64,000 nucleotides of DNA from a virus (taxonomy: Duplodnaviria; Heunggongvirae; Uroviricota; Caudoviricetes): positions 1-64,000 of the IMG/VR virus record IMGVR_UViG_3300047994_000277; one strand, written 5' to 3'. Each line of letters opens with the position of its first letter. Position 1 is the stretch's first letter. This document shows, piece by piece, positions 4,490 to 53,600 of this stretch. The notes beneath the pieces were generated by a model. That model made no database searches. It saw only the letters and a list, made by a program, of their open reading frames with translations, and had not been told where the DNA came from. The position numbers and the translations under genes were made by a program.

Positions 4490-5314
4490 ATGAGTGATAT
4501 TTCCAAAGATTTAGAAAATTTAAATAAGGCGCTTGAAGCCACCCATGAATTGCAGCCAGGTCCGGCACTTAATACTACGGACTTGACCCAAATGGCGGAT
4601 CCATATCTGACAGATGCTGCTAAGACTGCATTAGCCAAAAAATCGACTTCCCAAGTTATAGTTGATAACGGCGAAGCCTATGTTTCGGTTTACCTTTGTG
4701 CAATGTCGATTGTAGGGGAAGAGGAAGAGGCGGTTAAAGAGCTAGCCGGTGCCGTGAACCTACTTGTTGAAAAAGGTCTTGTTCACTCTGCGCTTGCGCG
4801 TTTTAGCTCGGTTAGACTTGCCGAGATGCCTCGCCAGCACCCTGGCGCGGTTGTTTTAGTTTTTCCACTTGTTCCTGCTAAAAGGGAACAGGAAGCTAGG
4901 GATATCGCCGGTTCCTATCTGATGCGAGAAGGTGAAATGCCAGACCCTTCTATTCTAGATAAGACGCTTCCTGAAGGACAGTTTTTCGCCGACATCAGGG
5001 TATGGTCGCTTGACCAGGCGCCGAAGGACGAGAAGGGTTACTTCGATAGCGATAAAGCTGCTCAAATTCAAGTAGAGCAGTATCTTAAAGTTCTGCCCGA
5101 AGGCACCTTTCTGGTAAGCTGCCATAAAAAGGCCATTACGGATCTTTCTGTCCCTTACGAGGTCATTTTCTCCAATCCACTTCTTCCTTCGATTAAAGAA
5201 GTTTCTCTTCAGCATATTCGCCATCTTGAAAGAGTTCGCGGTGAAGTTAAGCAAATGAACCTACTTGTCGGTGTCGAGTATACGACCCGCGATGACAAGA
5301 AAATTAAGTTCTGA
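4490..5314 (+). CDS. hypothetical protein (274 aa)
   Basis: ATG at 4490 preceded by a GAGG Shine-Dalgarno. No recognised motif. Confidence 0.6.
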   Translation: MSDISKDLENLNKALEATHELQPGPALNTTDLTQMADPYLTDAAKTALAKKSTSQVIVDNGEAYVSVYLCAMSIVGEEEEAVKELAGAVNLLVEKGLVHSALARFSSVRLAEMPRQHPGAVVLVFPLVPAKREQEARDIAGSYLMREGEMPDPSILDKTLPEGQFFADIRVWSLDQAPKDEKGYFDSDKAAQIQVEQYLKVLPEGTFLVSCHKKAITDLSVPYEVIFSNPLLPSIKEVSLQHIRHLERVRGEVKQMNLLVGVEYTTRDDKKIKF

Positions 5315-5452
5315 CCGTTTTAGTATTCTATTCAAAAACCATGCCAGCGCTTTGCGTCGCTGCGCGACGCCTTTGGTACCTGAAAAAAGAATTTGACGCG
5401 CCTGGTCAAGCGTGCGACTATAGACCTAGCCTCACGGCAGAAAGTAGGGTCT

Positions 5453-6307
5453 ATGAAGCAGTTCGTATGTTGTATCCTTTCTTTTTCGCTCCTTCTCCTC
5501 TCGGCCTGTAATGATGGATCGGCCCCAGCGGCGGCCAGTGCTGGTTCCTCGCCCGCACCGGTTCATAAGCGGTACCTGGCCTCAAACGTCGTCTTTAGCG
5601 GTGCCTCTCTGTCTCGTGCCCGATCGTTCTCGGCAAGGGCTTTGGATGACGTCGATACCTCAACCAAAATCCTGGCCTCAGATATCATCTTGGATGACAA
5701 CAACTCGACTCGTCTGGTCTCAACAGACCTTCAAACGGCCCTGAACCAAGAAATTGCTCCAAACATTGAAACCAAGTTGAAAGGCCATACTTGGACGGTC
5801 TCGCACAAAATGATGCACATGGTGGCTGCTTTGGGCGATGCTGGCATCTCGGATCTTCCCCAGTACGGCCACTTCAATACGGTGGATGGTAGCAGTAACC
5901 CCGTCGTGAACTCTGACCTTCAGGCGATCATCGACAACTCTCAGGTGACGTTTAACTCAGACGGCACGTTCTCCATTGACTCTGGTTGCTTTGGCGTGAT
6001 CCATAAGGATGCCTGTGCGGATATGGGTCACAACTACGGATGGGTGAACATGAACGCCGGAACCTCTCCTGCGCCCTCGTTCCAGGCCGTCAGTGACTCC
6101 CATTTGATGTTCACCTTCCAGCTGGTCTCATATGACATCAACGGCAACCCGATCAACGCCTCGTCTGATCACAGCGGATCTTGGGAGGTCAGAACGGTTC
6201 AAGTCCTGTCAACCGATGCCACTACGGTGGTCCTGATGGGTGTCGGGGATCCCTCGCGGACCATTTTCCGTGGTCAGGAAGTGGTCGTCCTAACGTTGGT
6301 GCAATAA
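5453..6307 (+). CDS. putative lipoprotein
   Basis: Internal ATG at 5453 with an AGGG Shine-Dalgarno gives MKQFVCCILSFSLLLLSAC. This is a type II signal peptide with lipobox L-S-A-C. The track ORF begins at an upstream TTG at 5393. Confidence 0.6.
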   Translation: MKQFVCCILSFSLLLLSACNDGSAPAAASAGSSPAPVHKRYLASNVVFSGASLSRARSFSARALDDVDTSTKILASDIILDDNNSTRLVSTDLQTALNQEIAPNIETKLKGHTWTVSHKMMHMVAALGDAGISDLPQYGHFNTVDGSSNPVVNSDLQAIIDNSQVTFNSDGTFSIDSGCFGVIHKDACADMGHNYGWVNMNAGTSPAPSFQAVSDSHLMFTFQLVSYDINGNPINASSDHSGSWEVRTVQVLSTDATTVVLMGVGDPSRTIFRGQEVVVLTLVQ

Positions 6308-6309
6308 AT

Positions 6310-7287
6310 ATGAAGTTCCTCATCCTGCTACTGTTGGTTCAGTCCGCTTGGGCTGATGAATGGTTTTGCACGTCCCAAAGTTCGAAAAAGGAGGGGAATG
6401 GATATCTGGTATGCGGCGTTGGTCGAGGCTCGGACGTGGCCTCGGCCAGGGAAGATTCACTAGATCAGGCCAAGAAGGAGTTTCAGGGTCTATGTGCGCA
6501 GAGCGCCGATTGTCGGTGGCACGATGCCGTAGTGGAACCACTTAGGACGGCCTGTTCGGAAAAGGAGGGTCAGTTTGTTTGCTATCGGGCCGTGAAGTAC
6601 ACCCTTTCGTCCGTACCACCTCCTAAGCCGGCAGCAGATCGCCCTCTTTACCCTGAATCAATTGATGAGGAAATGTCCCAAAGGGCCGAAGCGGCCAATC
6701 CCATTTTACCAAAGGACACCTCGTATCGCGTGTTCAAGGCAAAGACGGCTGAAGAGGTTCACGATCTGCTCTGTAAGGGACCAAGGCCTCAGGTCAGCTA
6801 TTCATTTGTGTTCCATCCGCAAGGTCATCCTGGGCTGCCCATAGATCAGGCGGAGCAACTGAGGGCGCAGGACATCGCGCGCGCGAAGGTCCATTTCAAG
6901 TCCTTACTGTTTTACGTAGGTGCCGTGGGAGCAACGGATCCGAAAATCCCAAAGAACCGTTGGTACGAGGATTCTTACGTTCCGCAAAGCACCGCCCTGA
7001 GTGATTTGATCGAGAACTACACTTATATGTGGGAAAAATCCGAGATTAAAAGACTCAAGACGGATCGAGGTGTGATGACCGAACTAGGACACTTGGAATC
7101 AGAAGAGGATACGTCCACGCCAACGACCGCGCTTCGTAACCGCACCTCTCTGTGGATCCAAGTTCTCGCAGCATCGACTTCTTTGACCAGCCAGCCCTTG
7201 GGATCTGGTGACATCAAGTTCAAGGCCGATTTAGATCTCGCGTTGGCCTGTACGGCCATTCCTATAAGTCAATTGATTTCAAAATAA
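6310..7287 (+). CDS. secreted protein with signal peptide
   Basis: ATG at 6310 lies 2 nt after the upstream stop. MKFLILLLLVQSAWA is a cleavable signal peptide. The mature part is Cys-containing. Confidence 0.6.
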   Translation: MKFLILLLLVQSAWADEWFCTSQSSKKEGNGYLVCGVGRGSDVASAREDSLDQAKKEFQGLCAQSADCRWHDAVVEPLRTACSEKEGQFVCYRAVKYTLSSVPPPKPAADRPLYPESIDEEMSQRAEAANPILPKDTSYRVFKAKTAEEVHDLLCKGPRPQVSYSFVFHPQGHPGLPIDQAEQLRAQDIARAKVHFKSLLFYVGAVGATDPKIPKNRWYEDSYVPQSTALSDLIENYTYMWEKSEIKRLKTDRGVMTELGHLESEEDTSTPTTALRNRTSLWIQVLAASTSLTSQPLGSGDIKFKADLDLALACTAIPISQLISK

Positions 7288-7300
7288 AGAGGGTATTTCC

Positions 7301-7852
7301 ATGGGAGTCCGCAAATTACACGTTAACCATGTGCCTTTGATAGATATCGAATCACTTGCAAAACCCGTGCCATATGTGGGGAATCTCTTCGCCCATCCTT
7401 TTGTGGATGTGATCGAAGCGACCCTTTACGCGCTTGGGTTTGAGGATCCGGCTCTCTGCAGGCACATGAGTCACGATCGTATTGTTTGGTCCGCATCTTT
7501 TGATAACTCCATCATTTGCCGTTTTCAACTATTTTTGAACGGCTTTAGGGAAGTCGTAGTCAGCTTGACTTGTACGATCGGGCAGGCCGTAGAGGATCCG
7601 GTTAAACGAGAAAAGCTGTATGGGATCTTGCTTTTAAAGAATCGGACCTCAGAAGCGCCTTGGGGCTTTTCCTTGGACATGGCCACCTTCGTGATGGTCA
7701 ACTTTGAGTGCAATGCCCAGTGGATGACTCCTGACCATCTGGCCTTTAGGACCTACTCCATACCCGCTCACGGCGCTGAATTTCACGCCCTGTTCTTGTG
7801 CGCCGGTCTCATACAACTCCTACCTGCATCTTATTTTCAGATTTACGCTTGA
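7301..7852 (+). CDS. hypothetical protein (183 aa)
   Basis: AAGAGGG Shine-Dalgarno upstream of ATG at 7301. Confidence 0.55.
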   Translation: MGVRKLHVNHVPLIDIESLAKPVPYVGNLFAHPFVDVIEATLYALGFEDPALCRHMSHDRIVWSASFDNSIICRFQLFLNGFREVVVSLTCTIGQAVEDPVKREKLYGILLLKNRTSEAPWGFSLDMATFVMVNFECNAQWMTPDHLAFRTYSIPAHGAEFHALFLCAGLIQLLPASYFQIYA

Positions 7853-7883
7853 CTCGTGCAAGGATTGTGCCCATACTATAATT

Positions 7884-8007
7884 CGAAGGGTAGCTCAGTT
7901 GGTAGAGCGCCAGTTAGATTAACTGGAGGTCGCGGTGCGGAAAGCTAGTACCTAGGGACGCCTAGTGAAGACGAGTAATGCGAGTTCGAATCCCGCCCCT
8001 TCGACCA
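7884..8007 (+). tRNA. tRNA-like gene with an atypical 48 nt insertion
   Basis: Acceptor stem CGAAGGG (7884-7890) pairs with CCCTTCG (7997-8003), followed by A and CCA. D-arm GCTC-AGTTGGTA-GAGC. Anticodon-type hairpin CCAGT-TAGATTA-ACTGG. T-arm GCGAG-TTCGAAT-CCCGC. About 48 nt lie between the variable region and the T-arm, including a CTAGG-GACG-CCTAG hairpin. Total length is about 124 nt. Confidence 0.45.
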
Positions 8008-8157
8008 TTTTTCCTGGGCAAAACACTTTAGCGAGTGGCCAGGACGCCGCAGGGACCTGAGCGCTAACTCGAAAGCATGGCTGGGCTGAACCCCCTGGCA
8101 GGATGAGGAATTGGTCCTTCCTTTTGGGAGTGTAGCGGCGTTACATTTAGAGGACAC

Positions 8158-21236: not shown

Positions 21237-21677
21237 ATGATTAAATACGTTAAGGGAGATCTGTTTGAGACCAAGTGCAACATAATCGCCCACGGCTGCA
21301 ATTGTCGCGGCGGCTTTGGATCTGGTGTGGCTTATACGATGGCCATGAAATATCCTAAGGTCAGGGACATGTATCTGGAAAAGCACGAAGAGGAAGGTTG
21401 GAAGCTTGGAGACGTTCAGTTCGTAAGAGTACGAGATGGTCGAGTTATTGCTAATTGTGCTACTCAGTACAATTATCTCCCTCGCGGCGTGTGCCATGCT
21501 AGTTATGATGCTATTCGAAAAGCCATGCAGACCGTTAAAGAGTATGCGGTAAATAACGATTTGTCCGTTGCGATTCCTAAAATTGGCGCTGGACTCGCAG
21601 GCGGAGATTGGGATAAAATCGAAAGTATCCTCGAAGAAGTTTTCTCCGATTACTCCATCACGGTGTACGTCTTATGA
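21237..21677 (+). CDS. macro-domain protein (ADP-ribose binding/hydrolase)
   Basis: IIAHGCNCRGGFGSGVA aligns to the macro N-x(6)-GGG-V motif. IPKIGAGLAGGDW aligns to the second glycine-rich motif. Confidence 0.8.
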   Translation: MIKYVKGDLFETKCNIIAHGCNCRGGFGSGVAYTMAMKYPKVRDMYLEKHEEEGWKLGDVQFVRVRDGRVIANCATQYNYLPRGVCHASYDAIRKAMQTVKEYAVNNDLSVAIPKIGAGLAGGDWDKIESILEEVFSDYSITVYVL

Positions 21678-22893: not shown

Positions 22894-23856
22894 ATGAGTT
22901 TGATGACACCAAGGGCAACGTATGCCCCGTTCGAATACGACCAGGCTTACAAGTACTGGGAACTGCAGCAGCAATCGCATTGGTTACATACCGAAATTGC
23001 GATGGCAAGTGACATTAACGATTGGAAACTTAATTTAACCGATGGGGAACGTAACGTCATCGGCCAGATTTTGAAGGGCTTTACGCAATCAGAAGTCTTC
23101 ATCCAGGAATACTGGAGTCAAATGGTTGCCAAGTGGTTCAAGAAACCTGAAATCCAAATGATGGCGGCCTCGTTTGCTTCCATGGAGTCTATTCATGCGG
23201 TCGCTTACGCTTATCTTAATCAGTCTCTTGGCCTTGAAGATTTTTCTGCGTTTCTCCACGAGCCTACCGCAAAGGCGAAAATTGATCGCCTCATTGAGAC
23301 TAAAGGTAAGTCGCGCGAGGAGATCGCGCGCTCTCTGGCCATTTTCTCTGGTTTCAATGAGGGAGTTAACCTTTTTAGCTCATTTGCTGTTCTACTGAAC
23401 TTTAGTCGGTTTAACAAGATGAAGGGACTTGGGCAGATCATTGCCTTCTCGATCAAAGATGAATCCCTGCACTCCGAGGCTGGATGTTGGCTGTTTCGTA
23501 CTTTGGTCGGCGAATACCCAGAGATCTTTAACGATGAATTGAAGAAAAGCGTGTACGACGCAGCACGTACAACCATTGAGTTAGAAGACTCTTTCATCGA
23601 CAAAGCTTTTGAACTTGGTCCGATCGAGGGATTGGATCCTAAGGACTTGAAGGCGTTTATTCGCCATCGCGCAAATACCAAACTGAATGACCTTGGCTTG
23701 AAGCAGAATTGGAAAAACGTAGATAAGGATGCGCTCAAGCGAATGGATTGGTTCGACGTACTTTCGAGCGGCGTAAGCCATGCGGACTTTTTTGCACAAC
23801 GTGTTACAGATTATTCAAAAGGCACTTTAGATTTTAGCGGAGTATGGGATGCCTAA
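22894..23856 (+). CDS. nrdB: ribonucleotide reductase class I small subunit
   Basis: Di-iron ligand motifs MESIHAVAY (ExxH plus radical Tyr at +4) and DESLHSE. Confidence 0.9.
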   Translation: MSLMTPRATYAPFEYDQAYKYWELQQQSHWLHTEIAMASDINDWKLNLTDGERNVIGQILKGFTQSEVFIQEYWSQMVAKWFKKPEIQMMAASFASMESIHAVAYAYLNQSLGLEDFSAFLHEPTAKAKIDRLIETKGKSREEIARSLAIFSGFNEGVNLFSSFAVLLNFSRFNKMKGLGQIIAFSIKDESLHSEAGCWLFRTLVGEYPEIFNDELKKSVYDAARTTIELEDSFIDKAFELGPIEGLDPKDLKAFIRHRANTKLNDLGLKQNWKNVDKDALKRMDWFDVLSSGVSHADFFAQRVTDYSKGTLDFSGVWDA

Positions 23857-24025
23857 GAAAAAGAAAATAGAAGAAACGTCAACGGCCATTGGTAGCGCTA
23901 CTAAGGAAGATTTGGAAAACGAGATAGACTGGGATAACGCTCCAGGCCCGTTTAGCCATTGGTTGGAAGACTTAGAGGATAACGATCGCCCTTTGGGCGC
24001 TCCTATCCACGATTTGGATGATTAA
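23849..24025 (+). CDS. small acidic protein (58 aa) bridging nrdB and nrdA
   Basis: ATGCCTAA overlap with the nrdB stop. Its stop overlaps the nrdA start. Confidence 0.3.
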   Translation: MPKKKKIEETSTAIGSATKEDLENEIDWDNAPGPFSHWLEDLEDNDRPLGAPIHDLDD

Positions 24026-25715
24026 TATGAAACTTGATGAGTTGAAGGCTGCCGGTGAAGCGCCTGAGTGGATGAACGACGAGGGTTTGAAAACCTTGAT
24101 GGGCGGGTACATGCTGCCTGGGGAAACTCCTCGCGCCATGTACCGTCGTGTGGCTAAGGCCGCAGGCGGTTATTATAATGGAAAATACGAAGAAGAGTTT
24201 TTTGAGGCGATGTGGAAGAATTGGCTGTGCCCTGCCTCTCCTGTTTTGTCAAATATGGGTACCACTCGTGGCTTGCCTATTTCTTGTAACAGCATTCATG
24301 TCGGCGATTCTGTGGACAGTATTTTTGGTAAGTCTCATGAACTCGCCATGCTTTCTAAAAATGGTGCTGGTGTTGGTATATATGTGGGCGATGTGCGTGG
24401 ACGCAATGCTGTTATTTCTGGGAATGGGCGTTCTGAAGGCATCATACCCTGGTGTAAAGTCTACGATTCGACAATTATTTCAGTAAGCCAAGGAAATACG
24501 CGTAGAGGCGCAGGCGCAGTCTATGCAGGCGTCAGACACGCCGATATCGATGAGTTCATTAATATGAGGCGTGCTACAGGCGATGCTAATCGCCGTTGCA
24601 TGAACCTGAACCATGGGCTCTGCATCGATGATGAGTGGATGAAGGACGCACGGGCCGGAGATAAGGCTAAGCGACAACTTTGGCAGGAGATCCTTAAGGC
24701 CCGCGTAGAGACTGGCGAACCTTATCTGTTTTTTTCGGACAACGTAAATCGTCAAAATCCAGAATGCTACACTAAGAATGGTCTTCGTGTCAGCACTTCC
24801 AACATCTGCACTGAGATCATGCTCTTTACGGATGAGAAACATAGTTTCGTATGCTGTCTTTCTTCTTTGAACCTCGTCAAGTGGAACGAATGGAAGAAGA
24901 CCAATCTGGTGCGCCTGGCAGTTAAATTCTTGGACGCGGTGATCGAGGAATATCTCATGAAGTCTGCCGGCATTCCGGGCTTTGAGCCTAGCCGTGCCGC
25001 CGCCATGAAGGGTCGCGCCATCGGAATCGGCGTTTTGGGTTGGCATACGCTTCTGCAGATGAACCAGATTCCCTTTGATAGCTTTGAAGCTATGATGCTT
25101 AACTCTCAAATCTTCCAAAGATTGAAGAAAGAGGCTGAGATCGAGTCCGCTTCCTTAGCGGCTGAGCTTGGCGAGCCAGAGTGGTGCAAAGGATTTGGTC
25201 GTCGTAACACTCATTTGATTGCCGTTGCGCCTACCGTATCAAATTCTACGATTTCTGGTGGTCATTCAGCTGGAATTGAGCCTCTGGCGGCCAATATTTT
25301 CTCTCAAAAGTCTGCAAAGGGAACTTTTATTAGAAAAAATAGAGTTTTTGAAGAGCTTTTAGAGCGAAAAGGCAAGAATTCTCCTGAAATTTGGAAACAG
25401 ATCAACGAACAAAGCGGTTCCGTGCAGACTTTGGACTGTCTTTCTGATGAAGAGAAGGAAGTTTTTCTCACTGCGCGCGAAATCAATCAGCATGCGATCA
25501 TCAAGCAGGCCGCGCAGCGCCAGAAATGGATCGATCAGGGTCAGTCCGTCAACCTTTTCTTCGCCGCCAACGCTTCTCCAAAGTACATACACGAGGTTCA
25601 CTGGTCTGCTTGGGAAAGTGGGCTCAAGTCGCTCTATTATCTGCGTACTGAAGGCGTCCTGAGGGGCGATATGGCCTCTCGTTCCAAGGAAGAGTGCGCG
25701 GCCTGCGAAGCTTAG
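24018..25715 (+). CDS. nrdA: ribonucleotide reductase class I large subunit (no ATP-cone)
   Basis: Active-site SNICTEI (N-x-C-x-E). C-terminal redox pair CAAC. Alternative start at 24027. Confidence 0.9.
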   Translation: MINMKLDELKAAGEAPEWMNDEGLKTLMGGYMLPGETPRAMYRRVAKAAGGYYNGKYEEEFFEAMWKNWLCPASPVLSNMGTTRGLPISCNSIHVGDSVDSIFGKSHELAMLSKNGAGVGIYVGDVRGRNAVISGNGRSEGIIPWCKVYDSTIISVSQGNTRRGAGAVYAGVRHADIDEFINMRRATGDANRRCMNLNHGLCIDDEWMKDARAGDKAKRQLWQEILKARVETGEPYLFFSDNVNRQNPECYTKNGLRVSTSNICTEIMLFTDEKHSFVCCLSSLNLVKWNEWKKTNLVRLAVKFLDAVIEEYLMKSAGIPGFEPSRAAAMKGRAIGIGVLGWHTLLQMNQIPFDSFEAMMLNSQIFQRLKKEAEIESASLAAELGEPEWCKGFGRRNTHLIAVAPTVSNSTISGGHSAGIEPLAANIFSQKSAKGTFIRKNRVFEELLERKGKNSPEIWKQINEQSGSVQTLDCLSDEEKEVFLTAREINQHAIIKQAAQRQKWIDQGQSVNLFFAANASPKYIHEVHWSAWESGLKSLYYLRTEGVLRGDMASRSKEECAACEA

Positions 25716-26284: not shown

Positions 26285-26983
26285 ATGAGCCGTATTATTT
26301 TGACCGATATCCATGGGTGTTACAAGACCATGCTGGCGCTTATCGATAAGCTCCCACCTGGCATTCCTTTGACCTTTGCCGGCGACTTGATTGATCGTGG
26401 CCCCGACTCCAAGTCGGTGGTCGAATACGTCAAGGCAAATAAGCACGACTGCGTTCTTGGAAACCATGAAGTTATGATGGTTCAGGAACTGGAATTTGAT
26501 CCAGACGGAGCTTACATTCGCCCAAGCTACATGAACGGTATCTGGCTTATGAACGGTGGCGACAAGTGTTTGGACAGCTATCAAAATGATAATGGGGATA
26601 TGGACGATATCACGCTGAGGAGACACCAGCGCTTAATGAAAACATTGCCATATTATCTGGAATATCCAGAACTTAAGAACGATAAGGGTCAGCATCTTTT
26701 GGTCACCCATACGACTGCGGCGCACGTTTGGAATGACGAGGAAGTGTCTAAGGATAGCCCTCGTTTTCAAGATTTCGTGACTTGGGAGCGCGACCCATTT
26801 CCTGCTAAAATTGAAGGAATTTACAACGTTTACGGCCATACTCCTCAACAATACAAAGCTACGGTAAAAGAGCACTTCGCCTGCATCGATACAGGTGGTT
26901 ATTTTAAAAGGGAAAATTACGGTAAACTCACTGCTCTCCAATTTCCCGAAATGATCGTATACGAGCAAAAAAACATAGAGTGA
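26285..26983 (+). CDS. PPP-family Ser/Thr protein phosphatase (lambda-phosphatase/ApaH-like)
   Basis: DIHG, GDLIDRG and GNHE metallophosphatase motifs. Confidence 0.85.
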   Translation: MSRIILTDIHGCYKTMLALIDKLPPGIPLTFAGDLIDRGPDSKSVVEYVKANKHDCVLGNHEVMMVQELEFDPDGAYIRPSYMNGIWLMNGGDKCLDSYQNDNGDMDDITLRRHQRLMKTLPYYLEYPELKNDKGQHLLVTHTTAAHVWNDEEVSKDSPRFQDFVTWERDPFPAKIEGIYNVYGHTPQQYKATVKEHFACIDTGGYFKRENYGKLTALQFPEMIVYEQKNIE

Positions 26984-27186
26984 AAAAAGTAGATAAAAAA
27001 GCACTAAAACGCTCAATTTGGTCTTCTCTTTCGAGAGTGATCGGTATAGGATTGAGTGCAGGTGCTGGCAGTATGATCCATCGCATGGTTGGTGATGGAC
27101 TCGAAGGCTGGTCAATAGCCTCTGTAATGGCAATAGCCAGTTTTCTGCTTATGTGCTTCGCCGAGTATGAAAGGGAAAAAGAATGA
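26980..27186 (+). CDS. small membrane protein
   Basis: Two hydrophobic segments. ATGA overlaps on both sides. Confidence 0.4.
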   Translation: MKKVDKKALKRSIWSSLSRVIGIGLSAGAGSMIHRMVGDGLEGWSIASVMAIASFLLMCFAEYEREKE

Positions 27187-27404
27187 AAAGAAGCGAAATG
27201 TTACAAATCCTTAATGATGCTGTCATTGAAGCTGGTATTTCTCAAAAGATTTACAATAGCAAAGAATCATTGGAACATGTTCTACAGAAGCTCGAAGAAG
27301 CTGGGATGAAACCTCCCGTGACCAAGAATTGCCCTGTTCTTTTGACCACCCAACATACCTGGGAGCCTGAAAATGAACAAAATTCTAGAATTCAAGTTCG
27401 GTAG
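27183..27404 (+). CDS. small hypothetical protein
   Basis: ATGA overlap upstream. Confidence 0.4.
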   Translation: MKRSEMLQILNDAVIEAGISQKIYNSKESLEHVLQKLEEAGMKPPVTKNCPVLLTTQHTWEPENEQNSRIQVR

Positions 27405-28383
27405 CCATCTTTACGGAACTAACACGCCTAGCTCTGATTTGGACTTTAAGGGCATCTACCTGCCGACTGCACAAGAAATTGTGCTAGGTCGCGTGAAGGG
27501 TACCATCCAAAAATCGCGTCCGAAAGCTGATTGCGAGCGCAATACCAAGGATGACGTGGATTCCGAATACTTCACGCTTTGTAGGTATCTTGAGCTTTTG
27601 ACTGAAGGTCAGACGGTAGCTTTGGACGTTCTGTTCGCTAATACCCTCACTTTCTATACGGTCCAAGGCACTGAGATTATGGCTCGGATCTATGAGAACC
27701 GTGAACGCCTTATCACGCGTAACGTGAATGCCTTCGTGGGTTACGCCCGCCAGCAGGCTGCTAAGTACGGCATCAAGGGATCCAGAATGGACGCACTTAA
27801 GCGCACCATGGAAATGTTGGACTCGCTAAAAGTGACTCCCGGATATCAGGATACTTTGGACTATTATACGTTTCCGATTGAGCAGCTGGTTCAGGAGACT
27901 AAAGAGCTTGTTTCCCTTGAAAAGACCGCCCTGATTGAGGTGGTTATGCTTAAAGGACCTAAAGGTGCTTTTGATGCTCCACACCTTCGTGTAAATGGTC
28001 GATCTATCCCATTTCATGCCAAAGTGAAGTACGCGAAGGAAGTGGTCGGTAAAATGCTCGACGGATACGGTCAGAGAGCCCATAAGGCTCATTTGGCCGG
28101 TGGAGTTGACTGGAAGGCCCTAAGCCATGCTGTTAGGGTCAATAGCGAGGCTATGGAGCTTCTTAAGACCAGCGTGATTACCTTCCCTAGGCCCGATAAG
28201 GAACTTTTGCTCAAGATCAAGAAGGGCGAGTTGCCATACGAGCAAGTAGCTGAATTGATTGAGCAAGGACTTGCCGATCTTTACGTGGCCCACGAGACGT
28301 CAACTTTACCTGACAAACCCGATCAGAAATTTGTTGACGACCTTCTCTACGAAGTGTATTCTGAAATTGTGAAAGGGGCATAA
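27373..28383 (+). CDS. pol-beta superfamily nucleotidyltransferase
   Basis: FGSHLYGTNTPSSDLDFKG matches GS-x(10)-DxD. Helical C-terminal domain. Confidence 0.65.
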   Translation: MNKILEFKFGSHLYGTNTPSSDLDFKGIYLPTAQEIVLGRVKGTIQKSRPKADCERNTKDDVDSEYFTLCRYLELLTEGQTVALDVLFANTLTFYTVQGTEIMARIYENRERLITRNVNAFVGYARQQAAKYGIKGSRMDALKRTMEMLDSLKVTPGYQDTLDYYTFPIEQLVQETKELVSLEKTALIEVVMLKGPKGAFDAPHLRVNGRSIPFHAKVKYAKEVVGKMLDGYGQRAHKAHLAGGVDWKALSHAVRVNSEAMELLKTSVITFPRPDKELLLKIKKGELPYEQVAELIEQGLADLYVAHETSTLPDKPDQKFVDDLLYEVYSEIVKGA

Positions 28384-28384
28384 C

Positions 28385-29338
28385 ATGCCTAAACTTACCG
28401 TGTTGGTTGGGCCTCCCGGCTCAGGAAAATCTACGCTTGCTAAGAAAATTATCGATCATACTCCCGACGACATTGATCGGCCTCAACCTGTTTATATCAA
28501 TCAGGATTCTCAAGGTCGCGATGGTCATATGGCTCTTTTTCAGGAGGCACTCGCTAATGGCAAAGATATTATTGTGGATCGCATGGGTTTCGACCGCAAC
28601 CAGCGTAATCGCTATATTTTTCCGGCCTCAGGACGCGGTTATGATACTAGAATCATCGTTCTGCATCAGCCTTATCGGGTATGTTTGGAGCGAGCACTTG
28701 CTCGAACAGAGCATGAAACGATTAAGGATGAAAAAGCAGCGCGATCCGCGCTGAGCACTTTTTTCTCTAAGTACGAGCGTCCTGAGCAGGGCGAGGCTGG
28801 TGAGATTGAATTTCGCTATCCTGAGGGCGATAAGCCTTCTGCGATCATTTGCGACCTCGACGGCACCCTTTGCAATGTGGACCATAGGCTTCATACGGTT
28901 CGCCCTCCTAAAGAATGGGCGGAAGAAATCGCACTGGCAAAGAGTGAAAAACGCCCTAACGTTCATGGTTGGAAGGCTAATTGGCCTGCTTTCTTTGATG
29001 GGATTCCAGGCGATGGCGTGAATCAGTGGTGCCAGGACATTCTCTTTTCCATGCAAGAGAAGGGTCATAAGATCGTTTTCTGCTCTGGGCGTCCTGATAA
29101 CCATAAACGTGCTACCAAGGACTGGCTGTGTAACAAAACCGGTTATTACAATCCTATCCTGTTTATGCGCCCGCGCGGAGACTCTAGGGACGATAGCATC
29201 GTTAAGGAAATTATCCTCGACTTTGAAATCTTGACAAGATTTACCCCCTATTTTATGATCGATGATAGGAAGCGTGTTTTCGAGATGTGGCGTAAACGCG
29301 GCTTCACTTGTTTGGCTTGTGCGAATGGAGATTTTTAA
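28385..29338 (+). CDS. polynucleotide 5'-kinase/3'-phosphatase (T4 Pnkp-like)
   Basis: N-terminal P-loop GPPGSGKST. C-terminal HAD motif ICDLDGTL. Same kinase-then-phosphatase order as T4 Pnkp. Confidence 0.8.
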   Translation: MPKLTVLVGPPGSGKSTLAKKIIDHTPDDIDRPQPVYINQDSQGRDGHMALFQEALANGKDIIVDRMGFDRNQRNRYIFPASGRGYDTRIIVLHQPYRVCLERALARTEHETIKDEKAARSALSTFFSKYERPEQGEAGEIEFRYPEGDKPSAIICDLDGTLCNVDHRLHTVRPPKEWAEEIALAKSEKRPNVHGWKANWPAFFDGIPGDGVNQWCQDILFSMQEKGHKIVFCSGRPDNHKRATKDWLCNKTGYYNPILFMRPRGDSRDDSIVKEIILDFEILTRFTPYFMIDDRKRVFEMWRKRGFTCLACANGDF

Positions 29339-29339
29339 T

Positions 29340-30572
29340 ATGTTTAGACCTTTATTGTGGCCTGCTAGTTGGTTTCAGAAGAAAGAAGAAAAGGTTGCGG
29401 AGAATACCGCCGAAACCTCCGCACCTGCTGCGGAGAATGCGGATGAAGGCAGCACTTTTCGTGTTCCCTACACCAGAATCTTGAACATTACTCCGCACAA
29501 TAACGCCGATAAGCTCGAAATTTGTTGGGTGTACGGTTTTCAGGTAGTTGCTCAGAAGGGCAAGTTCCAAGTGGGCGATAAGGTCGTTTACGTGCCTATC
29601 GATTCCATCCTCCCTCAATGGCTCGAAGATCGTCTCTTCCCTGCTGATGCTAAGATCAAGCTAACTAAGCATCGTGTGCGCCAGATCCGTATTCGTAAGT
29701 TTGCCTCACAAGGCATGTTAGTCAGTCTTTCTGACGTGCAGGACGAGGTCGGACAACCCTATGATGAGATGGATCTTAAGAAAATGCTTGGTATTAGCAA
29801 GTATGAGCCGCCAGTGCAAGGTCCCTCGTCTACTTTGGGCCTTGGGCGAAATCGCAACAAGAAACATGAGCATCCGTTGTTCCACAAGTACAACGGTCTC
29901 GATAATATCAAGTGGTTTCCAGACCTTTTCAAAGAAGGTGAGACCGAAGTGGTCATCCAGGAGAAACTCCATGGAACTAATGCCCGTGCGTCGAAGCTCC
30001 CATTTATCGCGAATACATGGCGTAAGAAGCTTAAGAAGATTTTTGGGTTGGCGCCCAAGGAAGAGCTTTGCTATGGGTCAAATAACGTAGATATCTCTGC
30101 GGCCACGGCCTACAAGGGTTTTTATGGCGAAGATGTTTACGGTAAGACCTTCGATTCTTGCAAGGTCTTTGAGAAGCTCAAGCTTGGCGAGATCGTCTTT
30201 GGCGAAATCATCGGCCCTGGTATCCAAAAGAACTACGACTATGGCCTTGGCGATCATCGCTTTGTCGTCTTTGACGTGAAAGTTCTCCAACCTGATGGGA
30301 AGTCGTTTAAGTGGCTTACTCCTCGCGAAGTAGCGCTGTACACCATTGAACGTGGTTTTGAGCACGTTCCTTGTTTGTACAAGGGAATGTATTACCGTGA
30401 ACTGGCCTTTAGCTTCACTAAGGGTCCTAGTGTGTATTGCCCTAAGCAGAAGGTACGTGAAGGTGTTGTTATTAAGGACGCCAATGCGTATGACTTTGGT
30501 GGCAACAAGCGTGCTCTGAAATGGGTGTCTGAAGATTATTTGGACGATACCTCTAACACGGATAATCACTGA
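29340..30572 (+). CDS. ATP-dependent RNA ligase (Rnl2/Rnl5-like, DraRnl-type N-terminal extension)
   Basis: Motif I EKLHGTN (KxHGxN) at about aa 215. Motif IV/V REGVVIKD and KRALKW. About 200 aa N-terminal extension. Confidence 0.75.
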   Translation: MFRPLLWPASWFQKKEEKVAENTAETSAPAAENADEGSTFRVPYTRILNITPHNNADKLEICWVYGFQVVAQKGKFQVGDKVVYVPIDSILPQWLEDRLFPADAKIKLTKHRVRQIRIRKFASQGMLVSLSDVQDEVGQPYDEMDLKKMLGISKYEPPVQGPSSTLGLGRNRNKKHEHPLFHKYNGLDNIKWFPDLFKEGETEVVIQEKLHGTNARASKLPFIANTWRKKLKKIFGLAPKEELCYGSNNVDISAATAYKGFYGEDVYGKTFDSCKVFEKLKLGEIVFGEIIGPGIQKNYDYGLGDHRFVVFDVKVLQPDGKSFKWLTPREVALYTIERGFEHVPCLYKGMYYRELAFSFTKGPSVYCPKQKVREGVVIKDANAYDFGGNKRALKWVSEDYLDDTSNTDNH

Positions 30573-30916
30573 TGAAGCTCATTATTGCGGGTTCTAGACA
30601 TTTAAAGGTTTCCGTAGATTTCATTGCGCAAATCTTGGATCAACAAAAGCTATTCCCTGCAGAGATAGTGTCTGGAGGAGCCACGGGCATCGATACTTGC
30701 GCGCATAGGTTTGCTAAGGATCAAAAGCTTGTATTTGCCCTATTCGAAGCCGATTGGAAGAGAAATGGCAAGGCTGCTGGACATGTTCGAAACCTTGCCA
30801 TGGCTCTATATGGAGACGCCCTGCTGCTTATTTGGGATGGAAAGTCCAAAGGTAGCGCTAATATGAGGGCTAGGATGGTAGCGCTCAAGAAACCAATTTA
30901 CGAGGTGATCTTATGA
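30572..30916 (+). CDS. SLOG/DprA-like Rossmann domain protein (DUF2493-like)
   Basis: IIAGSRH...SGGATGIDTCAH signature. ATGA overlap with the ligase gene. Confidence 0.6.
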   Translation: MKLIIAGSRHLKVSVDFIAQILDQQKLFPAEIVSGGATGIDTCAHRFAKDQKLVFALFEADWKRNGKAAGHVRNLAMALYGDALLLIWDGKSKGSANMRARMVALKKPIYEVIL

Positions 30917-32254: not shown

Positions 32255-32740
32255 ATGGAAATCATTAAGTTCCCAGATGAAAGACTTCTTACTCCGTGTA
32301 AGCCCGTAACGGTCTTTACACCAGAGTTAAAGATCCTGCTGCAGTCTATGTGGGAAACCATGGTAGCCGCTAAAGGCGTTGGGCTTTCTGCCAATCAGGT
32401 CGGCCTCGAATACCGCATGTTCGTTATGGACGAGCATATTGAAAAGCATTTCATAGTTAATCCTGTAATCCTAGAAGCCGGTAAGCTCGCTTGTGATTTG
32501 GCCGAAGGATGCCTCAGCGCTCCAGGACAGACGATTAAGTTGAATAGGCCTAATTGGGTCACGCTGCGGTATCAGGATGAAAACGGTGAGTTCAGGCAGC
32601 GAACCTTCGTGGGTATTTATTCCGTTTGCGTGCAACACGAGATCGAGCATTTGGATGGAAAGTCTTTTTTGCTTAATAAGGCTATTCCCAAAAAGCTCCG
32701 TATTTTCCTTGCTAGCAAATGGGGTCTCAAAGTAAAATAA
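32255..32740 (+). CDS. def: peptide deformylase
   Basis: GLSANQVG, EGCLS and QHEIEHLDG motifs. Confidence 0.9.
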   Translation: MEIIKFPDERLLTPCKPVTVFTPELKILLQSMWETMVAAKGVGLSANQVGLEYRMFVMDEHIEKHFIVNPVILEAGKLACDLAEGCLSAPGQTIKLNRPNWVTLRYQDENGEFRQRTFVGIYSVCVQHEIEHLDGKSFLLNKAIPKKLRIFLASKWGLKVK

Positions 32741-32915
32741 GAACGTGAGAAGATTTAAGGCAATTATAGAATTTTTTGCAGTAGTAGCTTGCTTTGCAAT
32801 TGCTGGGTTTTTCTTGGGCGATGTCAAAGACAGCCCCAGGCTTTTCACTACCATTCTTGATTTTTTAGCATTTTGTACATTTTTCTTACTAGGCTTATCG
32901 TTTCTGTGAGGTTCC

Positions 32916-33746
32916 ATGATCAAAGCTGAAATTGTCTGCGATTCCGTTGCACCTTCCGGCGTTCGTCTGACCACTTTCGTTGTCACTTACCCGCGTTTCA
33001 TCCATGCGGAGTTCATGACGCATCGCGTATTTTCTAGAAACGCATCTTCGTCTCGCGCCATTCCGGTGAAGAAACAGATCGAGATGATCGAGAAGGAGCC
33101 TGTGATCCCTATCGCGTTCCGTAAGAACCGGAAAGGAATGCAGGCCGGCGAGTTATTGGACAATCAGGAGGAAGCCGTTAGGCTTTGGTTGGAAGGAAGA
33201 GACAGAGCGGTTGACATCGCGAAGAGGCTCGCCGACCTTGAAGTTCACAAACAGTATGCGAATCGTGTCCTGGAACCGTATGCTCATATTACAGTCGTAG
33301 TCACTGCCACCGATTGGGATAACTTCTTCGCGCTTCGCTGTCACGAGGCAGCTCAGCCCGAAATTCACGCCTTGGCCGATCTCATGTACGATGCCTATTT
33401 GTCAAGCACTCCTCGCGAACTTGTCAACGGTATGTGGCACATGCCTTTCGCAGGCGGGATGGATTGGTCCGACCTTTCTTCCCAAGAGCATCTCAAATGC
33501 TCTGTAGCACGCTGTGCTAGGGTTTCTTACTTAAACCACGACAAGACCGAGCCAACCCCTCGGCAAGACTTTGAGCTTTATGAGCGCCTCGTCGGCAATG
33601 CTCCACTGCACGCCTCTCCAGCTGAGCACCAGGCAATGGCCATTGGAGACGCCAGCGTGCGCTCAGGCAACTTCCGTGGCTGGATCCAATACCGCAAGAC
33701 CCTCAAGAACGAGAACGTGACTGGTTTTAGAAAGGCTGACGGATGA
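32916..33746 (+). CDS. thyX: FAD-dependent thymidylate synthase
   Basis: HRVFSRNASSSR aligns to the ThyX RHR-x7-S-x-R signature. Confidence 0.85.
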   Translation: MIKAEIVCDSVAPSGVRLTTFVVTYPRFIHAEFMTHRVFSRNASSSRAIPVKKQIEMIEKEPVIPIAFRKNRKGMQAGELLDNQEEAVRLWLEGRDRAVDIAKRLADLEVHKQYANRVLEPYAHITVVVTATDWDNFFALRCHEAAQPEIHALADLMYDAYLSSTPRELVNGMWHMPFAGGMDWSDLSSQEHLKCSVARCARVSYLNHDKTEPTPRQDFELYERLVGNAPLHASPAEHQAMAIGDASVRSGNFRGWIQYRKTLKNENVTGFRKADG

Positions 33747-34016: not shown

Positions 34017-34457
34017 ATGAAAGTTCTATTTCTTGACATAGATGGAGTGATGAATAACTTTCACATGCGTAATTTTGGTCAGAAATTTTCTGAACCTTCG
34101 CGTGACGCTTTGAATTCTATTGTTGAGCGCGTTCCTGAGCTTAAAATCGTTATTTCTAGCGCCTGGCGCATGCACGGGCTTGTGTACATGCAGAAGATGC
34201 TTCATAAGAACAAAATTAAGGGTGCTCTCGATGAATTCGACGGTACCAACGTGATCGATTGCACGGGTCGCGAGGACGGTATTCGAGGCCACCAGATTCA
34301 GTGCTGGCTGGACCGTAATCCTGGCGTAACGAGTTTTGTGATTTTAGATGATGAGTCAGATATGGGTCATTTGATGGACAAGTTGGTAAAAACCAATTCT
34401 TTCGTAGGGCTGACCTCGAAAGAAGCAGATAGAGCTGTTGAAATTCTCAACAAATAG
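34017..34457 (+). CDS. HAD-family phosphatase/nucleotidase-like protein
   Basis: LFLDIDGVMN HAD motif I. Confidence 0.65.
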   Translation: MKVLFLDIDGVMNNFHMRNFGQKFSEPSRDALNSIVERVPELKIVISSAWRMHGLVYMQKMLHKNKIKGALDEFDGTNVIDCTGREDGIRGHQIQCWLDRNPGVTSFVILDDESDMGHLMDKLVKTNSFVGLTSKEADRAVEILNK

Positions 34458-34465
34458 GAGACGTT

Positions 34466-34801
34466 ATGAAGTTTAATAGACATTTGGAAATCGGCATCAA
34501 TGCAGTTATCGCACTTAAAAAGCGTAACACCCCTACGCGCGTTCAGGATCTTCTGGAAGAAGTCGGCACTACCCAAAACTTCCTTGAGCAAGTCATGCGC
34601 AAGCTTCGCGTCGAAGGTATCGTAGTTTCTGTCCGTGGTCCGGGCGGCGGCTACGTTTTGGCCAACACTCCTACTCCGATCACTGCTTACCATGTGGCTA
34701 AGGCCGTAGGCCGTGACTTTGGAGTTTTGAGTTTGGACCAAGCTCCGATGGATAGGCTTGGTAAGGCAATTACCGATGCTTACCTGAATACCGTTCTTTG
34801 A
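34466..34801 (+). CDS. Rrf2-family winged-helix transcriptional regulator
   Basis: Helix-turn-helix followed by SVRGPGGGYVL, as in Rrf2/IscR/NsrR. Confidence 0.65.
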   Translation: MKFNRHLEIGINAVIALKKRNTPTRVQDLLEEVGTTQNFLEQVMRKLRVEGIVVSVRGPGGGYVLANTPTPITAYHVAKAVGRDFGVLSLDQAPMDRLGKAITDAYLNTVL

Positions 34802-50665: not shown

Positions 50666-53600
50666 ATGGCATCTGATCTCCCAGAACCACAGTCTTATGA
50701 GCAAATTTTGTCCGACATGCTGTCGGCCTATGCTGCCAAAGTTGGTATTAACGATTTTAACGTCGGTTCGGCAGTTACGAGCTTCTTTGAAGTCGTAGCG
50801 CTGGCCACAGCCCGCTCGTCCGGGGACGTGTTCCAGATCCTTAAGGATTTCTCGGTAGATAGAGCTACCGGCGACTCCCTGAAGCGCCTGGCTACTGAAA
50901 ACGGTATCGTTCCTATTTCTGCCCGTCCAACGACTGGTTTGGTGAACGTTGTCGATGTCAGTTTTACCAAGATTTCGACCAAGATCTATTCTGGCCTGAA
51001 TCCCCCAAATATCGGCTCGACTACGATCAATGTTAGCGACGCTTCTAAGTTCCCTTCGAGTGGAAGCCTTTATCTGGGTCGCGGTACTCCAAACGTTGAA
51101 GGTCCCATTCCTTATTCAGTTGCTCCAGTCCAAAACGGTGGTTATTGGATCTTCACGTTGACCAATCCAACTACCAAGTTCCATAACCTTGGCGAGACGA
51201 TCATTCTGGCTCAAGGCGGCAATCGCGCCGTCCCTGCTAATGCCATCGTAAACTCTCCAGGCGTTGGCGCAAGCTCTGATATCCAGTACTCCGTAACCAC
51301 GGCAGCTGTCGTACTTGACGGCGAAACCGAAGTTGACGGTGTATCCGTTACGGCTCTTAACCCAGGTTCGGCTGGTAACGTCCCATCGGGCGCTATTAAG
51401 ACATTCTCTGCTCCTCCTTTTAACGGTGCAACCGTTACTAACCCACTTCCCTTCACTACTGGCGCAGATAGCGAAACTGATGACCAGCTTCGCGTTCGCG
51501 TTAAAAACGCACTCGCTTCGACTGGTTTGGGAACGGCCACTGCTGTTAAAGCGGCTTTGATCGGCGCAACTCCTTCTGACGAGCAGGCTACTATCGTTAG
51601 CGATTCGCTGCAGATCAACACCGATGGTTCTGCGATCGTTTTTGTGGACGACGGCAATGGCTATGAAGAAAAAAGCGCTGGCGTCGGTATTGAATCGATC
51701 GTCGATAGTGCTATTGGTGGCGAACAGTTCTTCTCTCTCCAGACAGGTGGACGCCAAGCTCCAGTAGCTAAGGCGTATCTGCAAACCACCCTATCTGCCC
51801 CTTTTGATCTTATCGGCGGTGACACTCTCGCAGTGGTCGTTGGCGGTATTACGTATCAACATACGTTCTCCACTTCCGATTTCCGTTCCCCAGGTGGCGC
51901 AACAGCGTTTGAAGTTACGGCTTCGATCAACGCCGACACCTCCTTGGGCTTTGAAGCTACAACGGCGGGTGGCGGTCTTTACGTGGTTATCCGCGCAAAA
52001 GCTGAGGAACATGATAGCATTCAAACTATCGTTCCAACGCTTCAATCTGGGCGCGATGCATCTGTTCAGATGGGCTTCCCATCGAATTTGGTTCAGACCA
52101 TTCGTATTTACAAGAACCGCATTCCTCTTTCGAAAGATGGCTCTACCGCCTCGGTGTTTAGCCAAACTCAGCAATTGTGGTCTAACGCCATTCAAAATGG
52201 CGATACGCTCATTTTGGCTGTGGATGGAACCGCTTCCATCACGTACACGATTCTTGACTCTGATTTCCTGGCGACTCAGCTTTACACAAGCGTCGCTGCC
52301 ACGAACTCTTTGGCATCTTGGGCACAAGTGCTCAATGCAAAGCTTACGGGCGTGACGGTTACTATTTCTGGCCAGCAGCTTGAAATCACCTCTAACCTAG
52401 ATGCTTCTGATAGAGCAAAAATTGTTATCGACCCATCGTCCACCTTGGTTAATAAGGGCATGTTCTCTTCTAGCCTGGGTCTGTCGGAAACGGGCGCGGC
52501 GTCAGACTTTACTTTGGATCGCAACACTGCGCAATTCCAACTCGTTACTCCTTTGGAAAAGGGCGATAACCTGAGTGCAGGTACGAACGATACGCAGGGA
52601 ACTATTGTTGGTGATTCTATTTCTGGCGGAAGTATTACTCTTCCTTCGGACGCACATCTTTGGCTTCTCATTGATGCGCCAGGCACCATCATCGCAACCG
52701 GAGTTGTTGCCAATACGAACCTCGCAGTTTCTACCCCAGCTGCAAATACGATCAGATACACTTCTTCTGTTTCAAATGCATTCGCAAACGTCCTGCCAGG
52801 CGATTACGTGATCGTGTGGTCGGCAGAGCTTCCATCTGCTTCCGATCGCATCGAAGGCCGTGTCAATGCAGTTGGAGCCAATACACTTGATGTGGTCATT
52901 ACGCCTACCGAATATGCTGCCATCGTAACTACTGCCGGCATCGTATTTTTGAATGGCTTTACGGTTCTCAGAAGTGTCAATGCTCCTCAGAAATTCAAAG
53001 TTGCTGCGGGCAATAAAACCCTTGATCAAATTGCTCAAGAGCTTCAAGCTCAAACGAGCAACGTACAATTCAGCGTTGTGCAAGAGCTTTACCTGTCCAT
53101 CAACACGACCACTATGGATACCACCGGTTCCATTATGGTTATTACCGCCGATACGCAAGGCGAGCTGCTTGGCTTTACGTCGAATACGTCTGATGAAAGC
53201 AAAGACTCTTTGATCGCTTTCTATGACAGTGGTGACTACGAAGCACAGCTTCCTGTTTTCTTGCATTCTTCTTTTGCTGCCGGATCTGCCGCTGATCCAA
53301 TCGATAGCTACATTACTTCGTTTACCTCCGCAGTTTCCTTGGCTAACCGCGATCCAAACGAACTGATCTGTGTACTCCATCCTTATGGATCGGTTAGAGA
53401 TGCCCAGCCCTATGGCGAGCACACACAGGAAACATCCATTTCCGGCACGACCATTGGTGTCGTAGGCCAGCCAGATATTCGCCGTCTCCGTTCGATCGAT
53501 CGTTTCTTCATTGCAAATCCTCTTGATTTCGGTAGCCAAGATACGGCTGTTGTCGTCCTTGACAATGACCCAAGTAACGAAAGTTTCACGATCCCATTCT

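Follow-up and report, generated by a model that had tools for sequence, protein, structure and literature searches.

A three-gene cassette of RlaP, Pnkp, and an Rnl5-type ligase, predicted to heal, fill, and seal RNA breaks, in an uncultured caudoviricete phage

Many bacterial defenses cleave tRNA or rRNA, and RNA repair is one route by which phages escape them. Phage T4 repairs tRNA with Pnkp and the ligase Rnl1 after attack by the anticodon nuclease PrrC. Here, we ask whether three adjoining genes of a large, uncultured caudoviricete phage (IMG/VR record IMGVR_UViG_3300047994_000277, positions 1 to 64,000, here referred to as the "window") form a repair pathway of this kind and, if so, whether the pathway is new. 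The genes encode a polymerase beta-type nucleotidyltransferase (NTase) of the RlaP family, a 5'-kinase/3'-phosphatase (Pnkp), and an RNA ligase of the Rnl5 (DraRnl/NgrRnl) type. A first-pass annotation, made from the DNA letters, had taken them for a variant counterdefense system that heals and reseals RNAs. Its functional reading stands, in that repair of nuclease-cut RNAs by a heal-fill-seal pathway is probably the best explanation of the cassette, whereas its novelty was overstated: judged by family features, this is a new example of an RlaP-type RNA repair module that has already been described and not a new system.

Three plus-strand open reading frames (ORFs) fill positions 27373 to 30572, with 1 nt between neighbors; the NTase/Pnkp junction reads TAA-c-ATG (28381-28387) and the Pnkp/ligase junction TAA-t-ATG (29336-29342). 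The ligase stop codon shares its final base with the start codon of a fourth ORF, for a SLOG domain protein (TGATG, 30570-30574). The ligase ORF begins at 29262 in the program-made list of ORFs; we place its true start at the ATG at 29340, because it is preceded, at a distance of 8 nt, by GGAG and because public assemblies already call exactly this 410-aa product. Looking up that exact protein led only to a 2.9-kb fragment of the same sequence, and exact-protein look-ups of Pnkp and RlaP found neither on record. The base composition of the cassette is the same as that of its flanks, and the cassette is therefore not a recent insertion. No convincing terminator was found between its genes. Promoter-like sites numbered 22 against a shuffled mean of 14.8 (standard deviation [SD], 3.3), about two SDs above, and terminator-like sites numbered 16 against 12.1 (SD, 3.7), near the mean; counts at most about two SDs above those of shuffled sequence lend no support to operon boundaries. 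The cassette is probably co-transcribed and translationally coupled. The best sigma-70-like site of the 12 kb scanned (TTGACA-17-TATGAT, 11 of 12 positions; 29231-29259, plus strand) falls within the 3'-terminal part of Pnkp, some 80 nt before the ligase start. ORFs, domains, intact motifs, and spacing all agree with the three-gene cassette of the first-pass annotation, and each protein carries the sequence features of its family, with the sole exception that the ligase scores narrowly under an equivalog cutoff.

Membership of the first protein in RlaP rests on Pfam, PHROG, and a fold-level NTase match. The protein matches Pfam RlaP (PF10127; E = 6.7e-14; 52.6 bits against a gathering cutoff of 23), which is described as "RNA repair pathway DNA polymerase beta family," and matches phrog_388, "nucleotidyltransferase," over its full length (E = 5e-77). 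The GS-x10-DxD signature of a polymerase beta-type NTase, picked out before any family search, is present as G10-S11 and D22-x-D24, and G10, S11, D22, D24, and D85 (the G-S, the DxD, and the third carboxylate) are invariant across 28 homologues. By tblastn, homologues occur in 1,568 phage records, mostly of T4-like phages; NrdC.11 of phage RB43 is 36% identical over 99% of the length, and all 120 RlaP homologues listed carry PF10127. Searches of the PDB with the protein sequence and with a profile returned no true match to a solved structure related to RlaP; the predicted model combines an NTase fold, most similar to that of HalB and ANT-type NTases, with a C-terminal domain made of helices. 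The window protein falls in a cluster of NrdC.11-like phage proteins and carries an additional insert, rich in beta structure, of about 75 aa.

For the family, the addition of one or two nucleoside monophosphates to an RNA 3'-OH was shown in 2025 (Carruthers, Fatma, and Huang), only for the Pseudomonas enzymes PfRlaP and PaRlaP. Pseudomonas RlaP is RNA specific, prefers a broken tRNA end, leaves DNA 3' ends unmodified in vitro, and partly rescues the aminoacylation of tRNA that lacks one nucleotide. By analogy, the window RlaP is predicted to add one to two nucleotides to the RNA 3'-OH at a break. The earlier suggestion that this NTase might rebuild CCA ends found no support and was rejected; the head domain of class I/II CCA-adding and poly(A) polymerases (e.g., PF01743) was not found in it.

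The second protein joins a P-loop kinase (AAA_33, 6e-15) to a DxDxT phosphatase (HAD_PNKP, PF25109, 2.9e-30), the T4-like Pnkp composition recognized at first sight. Its P-loop, GPPGSGKS (residues 9-16), aligns to residues 9-16 of T4 Pnkp; in the phosphatase domain, DLDGT occupies residues 157-161, with D157/D159 on T4 D165/D167, SGR236 aligns to T4 SGR213, and IDD294R (D293-D294) aligns to T4 IDD278R. D41 stands within "INQD," and a counterpart of T4 R38 was not clearly placed. Among solved structures, the best relatives are Capnocytophaga Pnkp1 (4xrp, 1.5e-17) and then T4 Pnkp (1ltq, 1.7e-14), and tblastn gave abundant full-length matches, at 27 to 30% identity, to annotated phage Pnkp genes. 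From these characterized relatives, the protein is predicted to act on RNA ends both as a kinase and as a 2',3'-cyclic/3'-phosphatase.

The third protein is a KxHGxN ligase (motif I, K209LHGTN) in which 208 aa precede motif I, close to the roughly 200-aa N-terminal extension on which its assignment to the DraRnl/Rnl5 architecture had been founded. This extension comprises a variable, disordered leader of about 42 aa, an OB domain, and a linker; residues 43 to about 150 match the PHA02142 OB domain (PF21189, 1.5e-13), and residues from about 203 to 410 match the RNA_ligase domain (PF09414, 1.3e-20). The chain stops 16 residues past K394, with no domain appended after motif V. Motifs I (K209LHGTN), III (FGE289), IIIa (F311D312), IV (E374GVVIK379), and V (LK394W) are invariant among 30 homologues. 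Motifs I and III resemble those of T4 Rnl2. Motif I of DraRnl is TEKLHG, with which EKLHG in the window ligase agrees. In a phmmer search of the PDB, NgrRnl came first (N-domain, 5e-12) and T4 Rnl2 next; Foldseek aligned the predicted model to NgrRnl over 377 to 386 columns (E about 3e-19), with the match to T4 Rnl2 limited to the NTase domain. Against TIGR02306 (RNA_lig_DRB0094 equivalog, the DraRnl model), the ligase scores 145.1 bits, below the cutoff of 151.15, yet the alignment covers positions 7-339 of 341. Close relatives are labeled TIGR02306 by JGI, and we read the window ligase, on its sequence scores, as a divergent member.

Characterized Rnl5 enzymes seal 3'-OH/5'-PO4 duplex nicks in a Mn2+-dependent reaction and strictly require RNA on the 3'-OH side. 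Relatives of this ligase, at 59 to 80% identity, are found on metagenomic contigs of about 165 to 185 kb. The leader (residues 1-42, 29340-29465) is acidic, opens with a semiconserved "MF..W(F/Y)KK," and is missing entirely in some relatives; it may serve as a docking peptide or may be dispensable.

Searches of 50,697 phage records with the 3.2-kb cassette (megablast and blastn) found no DNA-level relatives among cultured phages. Without a close cultured relative, gene context was taken from metagenomes, for which we profiled 15 distinct related metagenomic phage loci (labeled L004, L005, and so on). Of the 15, 12 have a Pnkp gene just upstream of the ligase, and 10 have an RlaP gene no farther than 3.5 kb upstream of it. 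Six relatives, like the window, place a window-type RlaP directly before Pnkp-Rnl, a paralogue takes that slot in four more, and the order NTase-Pnkp-Rnl is kept in every locus (9/9) that has all three in the upstream arrangement. The paralogue (about 294 aa; L010 2206-3174, L011 5859-6773, L012 4783-5667, and L014 6457-7341) is a divergent RlaP, roughly 23% identical to that of the window and without the beta-rich insert; it matches Pfam RlaP at 1e-16 to 1e-20 and the window subfamily by hhalign at 98% (E = 2e-13). That a paralogue replaces the NTase in the same position argues for function and not mere inheritance. The ligase is exchanged as well: L027 encodes Pnkp, an Rnl1-type ligase, and an RlaP 65% identical to that of the window, in that order (4738-8023). 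L005 and L006 share an identical ligase and a near-identical Pnkp and differ in their RlaP alleles (55% and 70% identical to that of the window), which suggests recombination confined to the NTase gene. Components are thus swapped within a fixed arrangement, which fits the modular "syntax" of RNA repair systems. Burroughs and Aravind reportedly described this syntax in 2016 as a ligase, a nucleotidyltransferase, and a kinase/phosphatase, and are said to have named RlaP for its linkage to RNA ligases. Together, the family E-values and the conserved synteny place the cassette far beyond chance. What the loci show directly is which domains are present, that their catalytic motifs are intact, how closely the genes are packed, and that their order is conserved.

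Breaks made by metal-independent ribonucleases carry a 2',3'-cyclic phosphate (or a 3'-phosphate) and a 5'-OH. On such a break, the phosphatase domain of Pnkp would remove the 3' phosphate to leave a 3'-OH, and its kinase domain would convert the 5'-OH to a 5'-PO4. RlaP would then fill the 3'-OH with one to two nucleotides, restoring before ligation those lost at the break, and the ligase would join 3'-OH to 5'-PO4 via a lysyl-AMP on K209. The likely purpose would be to keep phage protein synthesis going by restoring host translation RNAs (tRNA or rRNA) that ribotoxins of abortive infection or of competitors have hit.

Does this pathway differ from the systems already described? The first-pass annotation held that the composition is not the classical T4 set. 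This is right for the ligase, which is neither Rnl1 nor Rnl2 but Rnl5 type, with an N-terminal OB domain and no C-terminal domain; no Rnl1-type ligase with a tRNA-specific C-terminal domain was found in the cassette, and among the relatives an Rnl1 homologue takes the equivalent position only in L027. It does not place the cassette outside the known repertoire, since RlaP modules have been described. Like T4, the window has the same Pnkp architecture and catalytic residues, and its NTase matches the RB43 homologue of T4 NrdC.11; unlike in the T4-like phages RB43 and 44RR2.8t, where the genes are scattered, they are contiguous here. The ligase resembles DraRnl and NgrRnl in passing from OB to adenylyltransferase domain, in ending shortly after motif V, and in its full-length fold match, and differs in its approximately 21 to 23% identity, its leader, and a longer linker. 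Furthermore, Deinococcus DraRnl lies beside a DEDDh-like gene, whereas the window ligase is operonic with Pnkp and RlaP. In the Capnocytophaga Pnkp1-Rnl-Hen1 system, as here, healing and sealing are on separate, co-encoded polypeptides, and Pnkp1 is the best solved relative of the window Pnkp; here, however, the ligase is of another family, and the cassette has no Hen1 methyltransferase nearby and has an NTase, instead of a methylase, as its third component.

The closest likeness is to the RlaP repair operons of phages, which set a PF10127 NTase beside an RNA ligase and a PNK-HAD end-healing enzyme. A survey of jumbo phages found that the distribution of RlaP mirrors that of RNA ligases and that ATP-grasp ligases occur together with PNK-HAD enzymes (Iyer et al., 2021). 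The operons of Pseudomonas differ: there, RlaP accompanies RtcB-RtcA, and its 3'-OH product is unfit for the RtcB encoded beside it, the problem with which the RlaP study closed; its authors noted that a 3'-OH product fits 5'-phosphate ligases and not RtcB. In the window, the partner is a 5'-phosphate ligase of the Rnl5 type, and the chemistry therefore fits the predicted RlaP product. Because the cassette pairs RlaP with such a ligase and with Pnkp, heal-fill-seal repair could be reconstituted with cognate enzymes. It thus offers a cognate, chemically coherent set for the study of RlaP-assisted repair and of Rnl5 function and points to a testable role for Rnl5 ligases; its value is modest, and it reveals no new principle.

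Several points weigh against RNA repair. We infer all of the enzymatic activities (from characterized homologues), the step order, and the biological target. The characterized RlaPs belong to a different cluster, are linked to RtcB in Pseudomonas, and are without the approximately 75-aa insert of the window protein; characterized Rnl5 ligases seal duplex nicks and not single-stranded loops, and their physiological role has been called "uncharted." The phenotype reported for DraRnl concerns DNA reassembly after irradiation. Seen from the RlaP side, Pnkp or a detectable ligase lies within 7 kb in only 19 of 73 IMG/VR phage loci, a count made with profiles that would miss Rnl2 and RtcB and among loci many of which are interrelated. 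The 64-kb window has no tRNA genes.

The main rival is a role at DNA nicks, because Rnl5 enzymes are duplex nick sealers with an uncharted role and DraRnl aids DNA reassembly. The cassette would then act on phage DNA, healing 3'-phosphate/5'-OH ends and sealing nicks with 3' ribonucleotides, for example after damage or restriction nicking or in ribonucleotide patching during replication or recombination, in parallel to the part that DraRnl plays in genome reassembly in Deinococcus. DraRnl deletion slows DNA reassembly after irradiation, Rnl5 tolerates DNA in the 5'-PO4 and template strands, and the cassette stands within a nucleotide metabolism block (ribonucleotide reductase [RNR] and ThyX, with dCMP deaminase and dUTPase in relatives). 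In L010 and L011, the gene after the ligase belongs to the UDG superfamily, and in L019, the ligase comes after a family A DNA polymerase. T4 Pnkp, for its part, is well known to act on DNA ends too. This role is nevertheless unlikely, given that Rnl5 needs RNA at the 3'-OH side of the nick, that RlaP did not modify DNA 3' ends in vitro, and that the recurring neighbors (HAD-SAK, Macro, and RlaP itself) are those described for RNA repair.

It is very unlikely that the three genes are adjacent without forming a pathway, each acting alone and brought together by shared early or middle expression. T4 itself has NrdC.11, Pnkp, and Rnl2 at scattered positions, and homologues are often unlinked in cultured T4-like phages: RB43 NrdC.11 stands alone, and so does the Rnl5 gene of 44RR2.8t, at 2.3 kb from rnlA and 4.6 kb from pseT. 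No detectable partner lies within 7 kb in 54 of the 73 RlaP loci. Such independence is hard to reconcile with 1-nt spacing, with a constant order in the nine relatives that have all three genes, or with the substitutions, in which a distant RlaP paralogue fills the same slot and an Rnl1 replaces the ligase beside the same partners; moreover, the predicted chemistries are complementary, Pnkp and RlaP making the ends that a 5'-phosphate ligase needs. Least likely of all is that the cassette matures or recycles the RNAs of the phage itself (processed transcripts or tRNA halves) and counters no attack, for although ligase-kinase-phosphatase sets are well known to splice tRNA in eukaryotes and no host toxin is in evidence here, the window shows neither tRNA genes nor any sign of split RNA genes, and the literature puts the phage homologues in contexts of conflict.

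Within the RNA repair explanation, a narrower proposal is possible but doubtful: in this phage clade, RlaP-Pnkp-Rnl5 may be a dedicated three-enzyme pathway evolved against RloC-like, "repair-defying" ribotoxins that remove a nucleotide after the cut, with SLOG, Macro, and HAD-SAK tied to the sensing or clearing of ADP-ribose immune signals. If true, this would be the first physiological RNA repair role for Rnl5 and would give RlaP a natural, chemically compatible ligase partner.

Gene families that published work connects with RNA repair or with the processing of ADP-ribose turn up repeatedly near the cassette, in positions that vary by locus (Table 1). The neighborhood shared among relatives runs from RNR through variable small genes to the cassette and then to peptide deformylase, ThyX, and HAD-SAK. 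We regard SLOG, Macro, the calcineurin-like phosphoesterase, HAD-SAK, and pyrophosphatase as candidates and not as established parts.

Table 1. Coordinates of the cassette, its ligase subregions, neighboring genes, and differing RlaP alleles (window positions unless a locus is named)
Feature	Coordinates	Strand	Family or other evidence
RlaP-family polymerase beta-type nucleotidyltransferase, 336 aa, predicted "fill"	27373..28383	+	NrdC.11 homologue
T4 Pnkp-type 5'-kinase/3'-phosphatase, 317 aa, predicted "heal"	28385..29338	+	AAA_33, PF25109
Rnl5 (DraRnl/NgrRnl)-type ATP-dependent RNA ligase, 410 aa, predicted "seal"	29340..30572	+	PF21189, PF09414
Ligase leader	29340-29465	+	
Ligase OB domain	about 29466-29790	+	
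Ligase adenylyltransferase domain	about 29946-30569	+	
YAcAr-type SLOG domain protein, 114 aa, candidate accessory or sensor	30572..30916	+	PF10686 1.7e-08
Calcineurin-like (lambda phosphatase/ApaH-like) phosphoesterase, candidate extra end-healing enzyme, weakly linked	26285..26983	+	PF00149 4e-12, phrog_246 6e-35
HAD_SAK_2 "Swiss Army Knife" phosphatase, candidate distant accessory	34017..34457 (3.4 kb downstream)	+	PF18143 4.4e-23
Macro domain protein, candidate distant accessory	21237..21677 (5.7 kb upstream)	+	PF01661 1.6e-06
Metabolic block around the cassette: RNR small and large subunits, peptide deformylase, ThyX	22894-25715, 32255-33746	+	
RlaP allele of L005	4082-5092		
RlaP allele of L006	4065-5093		

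SLOG homologues adjoin Pnkp-Rnl upstream in L010 and downstream in L015, and Erythrobacter phage vB_EliS-L02 has one at a distance of 4 kb from RlaP; with no more than 3 of the 15 relatives having it adjacent, SLOG is unsupported as a core component. To our knowledge, SLOG has no link to RNA ligation. Viral SLOG domains have been proposed to sense or degrade ADP-ribose-derived signals. The calcineurin-like phosphoesterase matches the phosphoesterase domain of bacterial Pnkp (TIGR04075, 2.3e-12); L005 and L006 have it at the syntenic upstream position, and in L012 it comes directly after the ligase. The HAD-SAK family has been described as an RNA repair phosphatase, and most relatives have copies to one side of the cassette or to both; a Macro gene lies between Pnkp and ligase in L013 (6937-7416) and L017 (7391-7852).

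An inorganic pyrophosphatase gene is found upstream of RlaP in L004 (3574-4023) and L005 (3636-4085), directly in both, and in L006 (3408-3857); in the window, two small ORFs stand there instead. Both the NTase reaction and ligase adenylylation release pyrophosphate. As companions of the cassette, the small ORFs at 26980-27186 and 27183-27404 showed weak, patchy conservation. A protein of about 130 aa follows the ligase in L010 (6789-7178) and L011 (9127-9534), and both copies match the Pfam UDG superfamily; a similar-looking ORF, the likeness judged by eye, lies upstream of the cassette in L012 (5758-6183), and Manatee Spring phage records annotate "RNA ligase" and "ttudgA-like protein" side by side. 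An Rrf2-family transcriptional regulator (34466-34801, plus strand; E = 7.7e-19) follows the HAD-SAK gene, and L004 has one too. Elsewhere, the window carries baseplate wedge genes, the phage having baseplate genes of myovirus type. A 2,187-aa protein (50666-57229, plus strand) has a baseplate wedge-like segment (phrog_6), and its neighbors are further large tail or baseplate genes, mostly without a family match.

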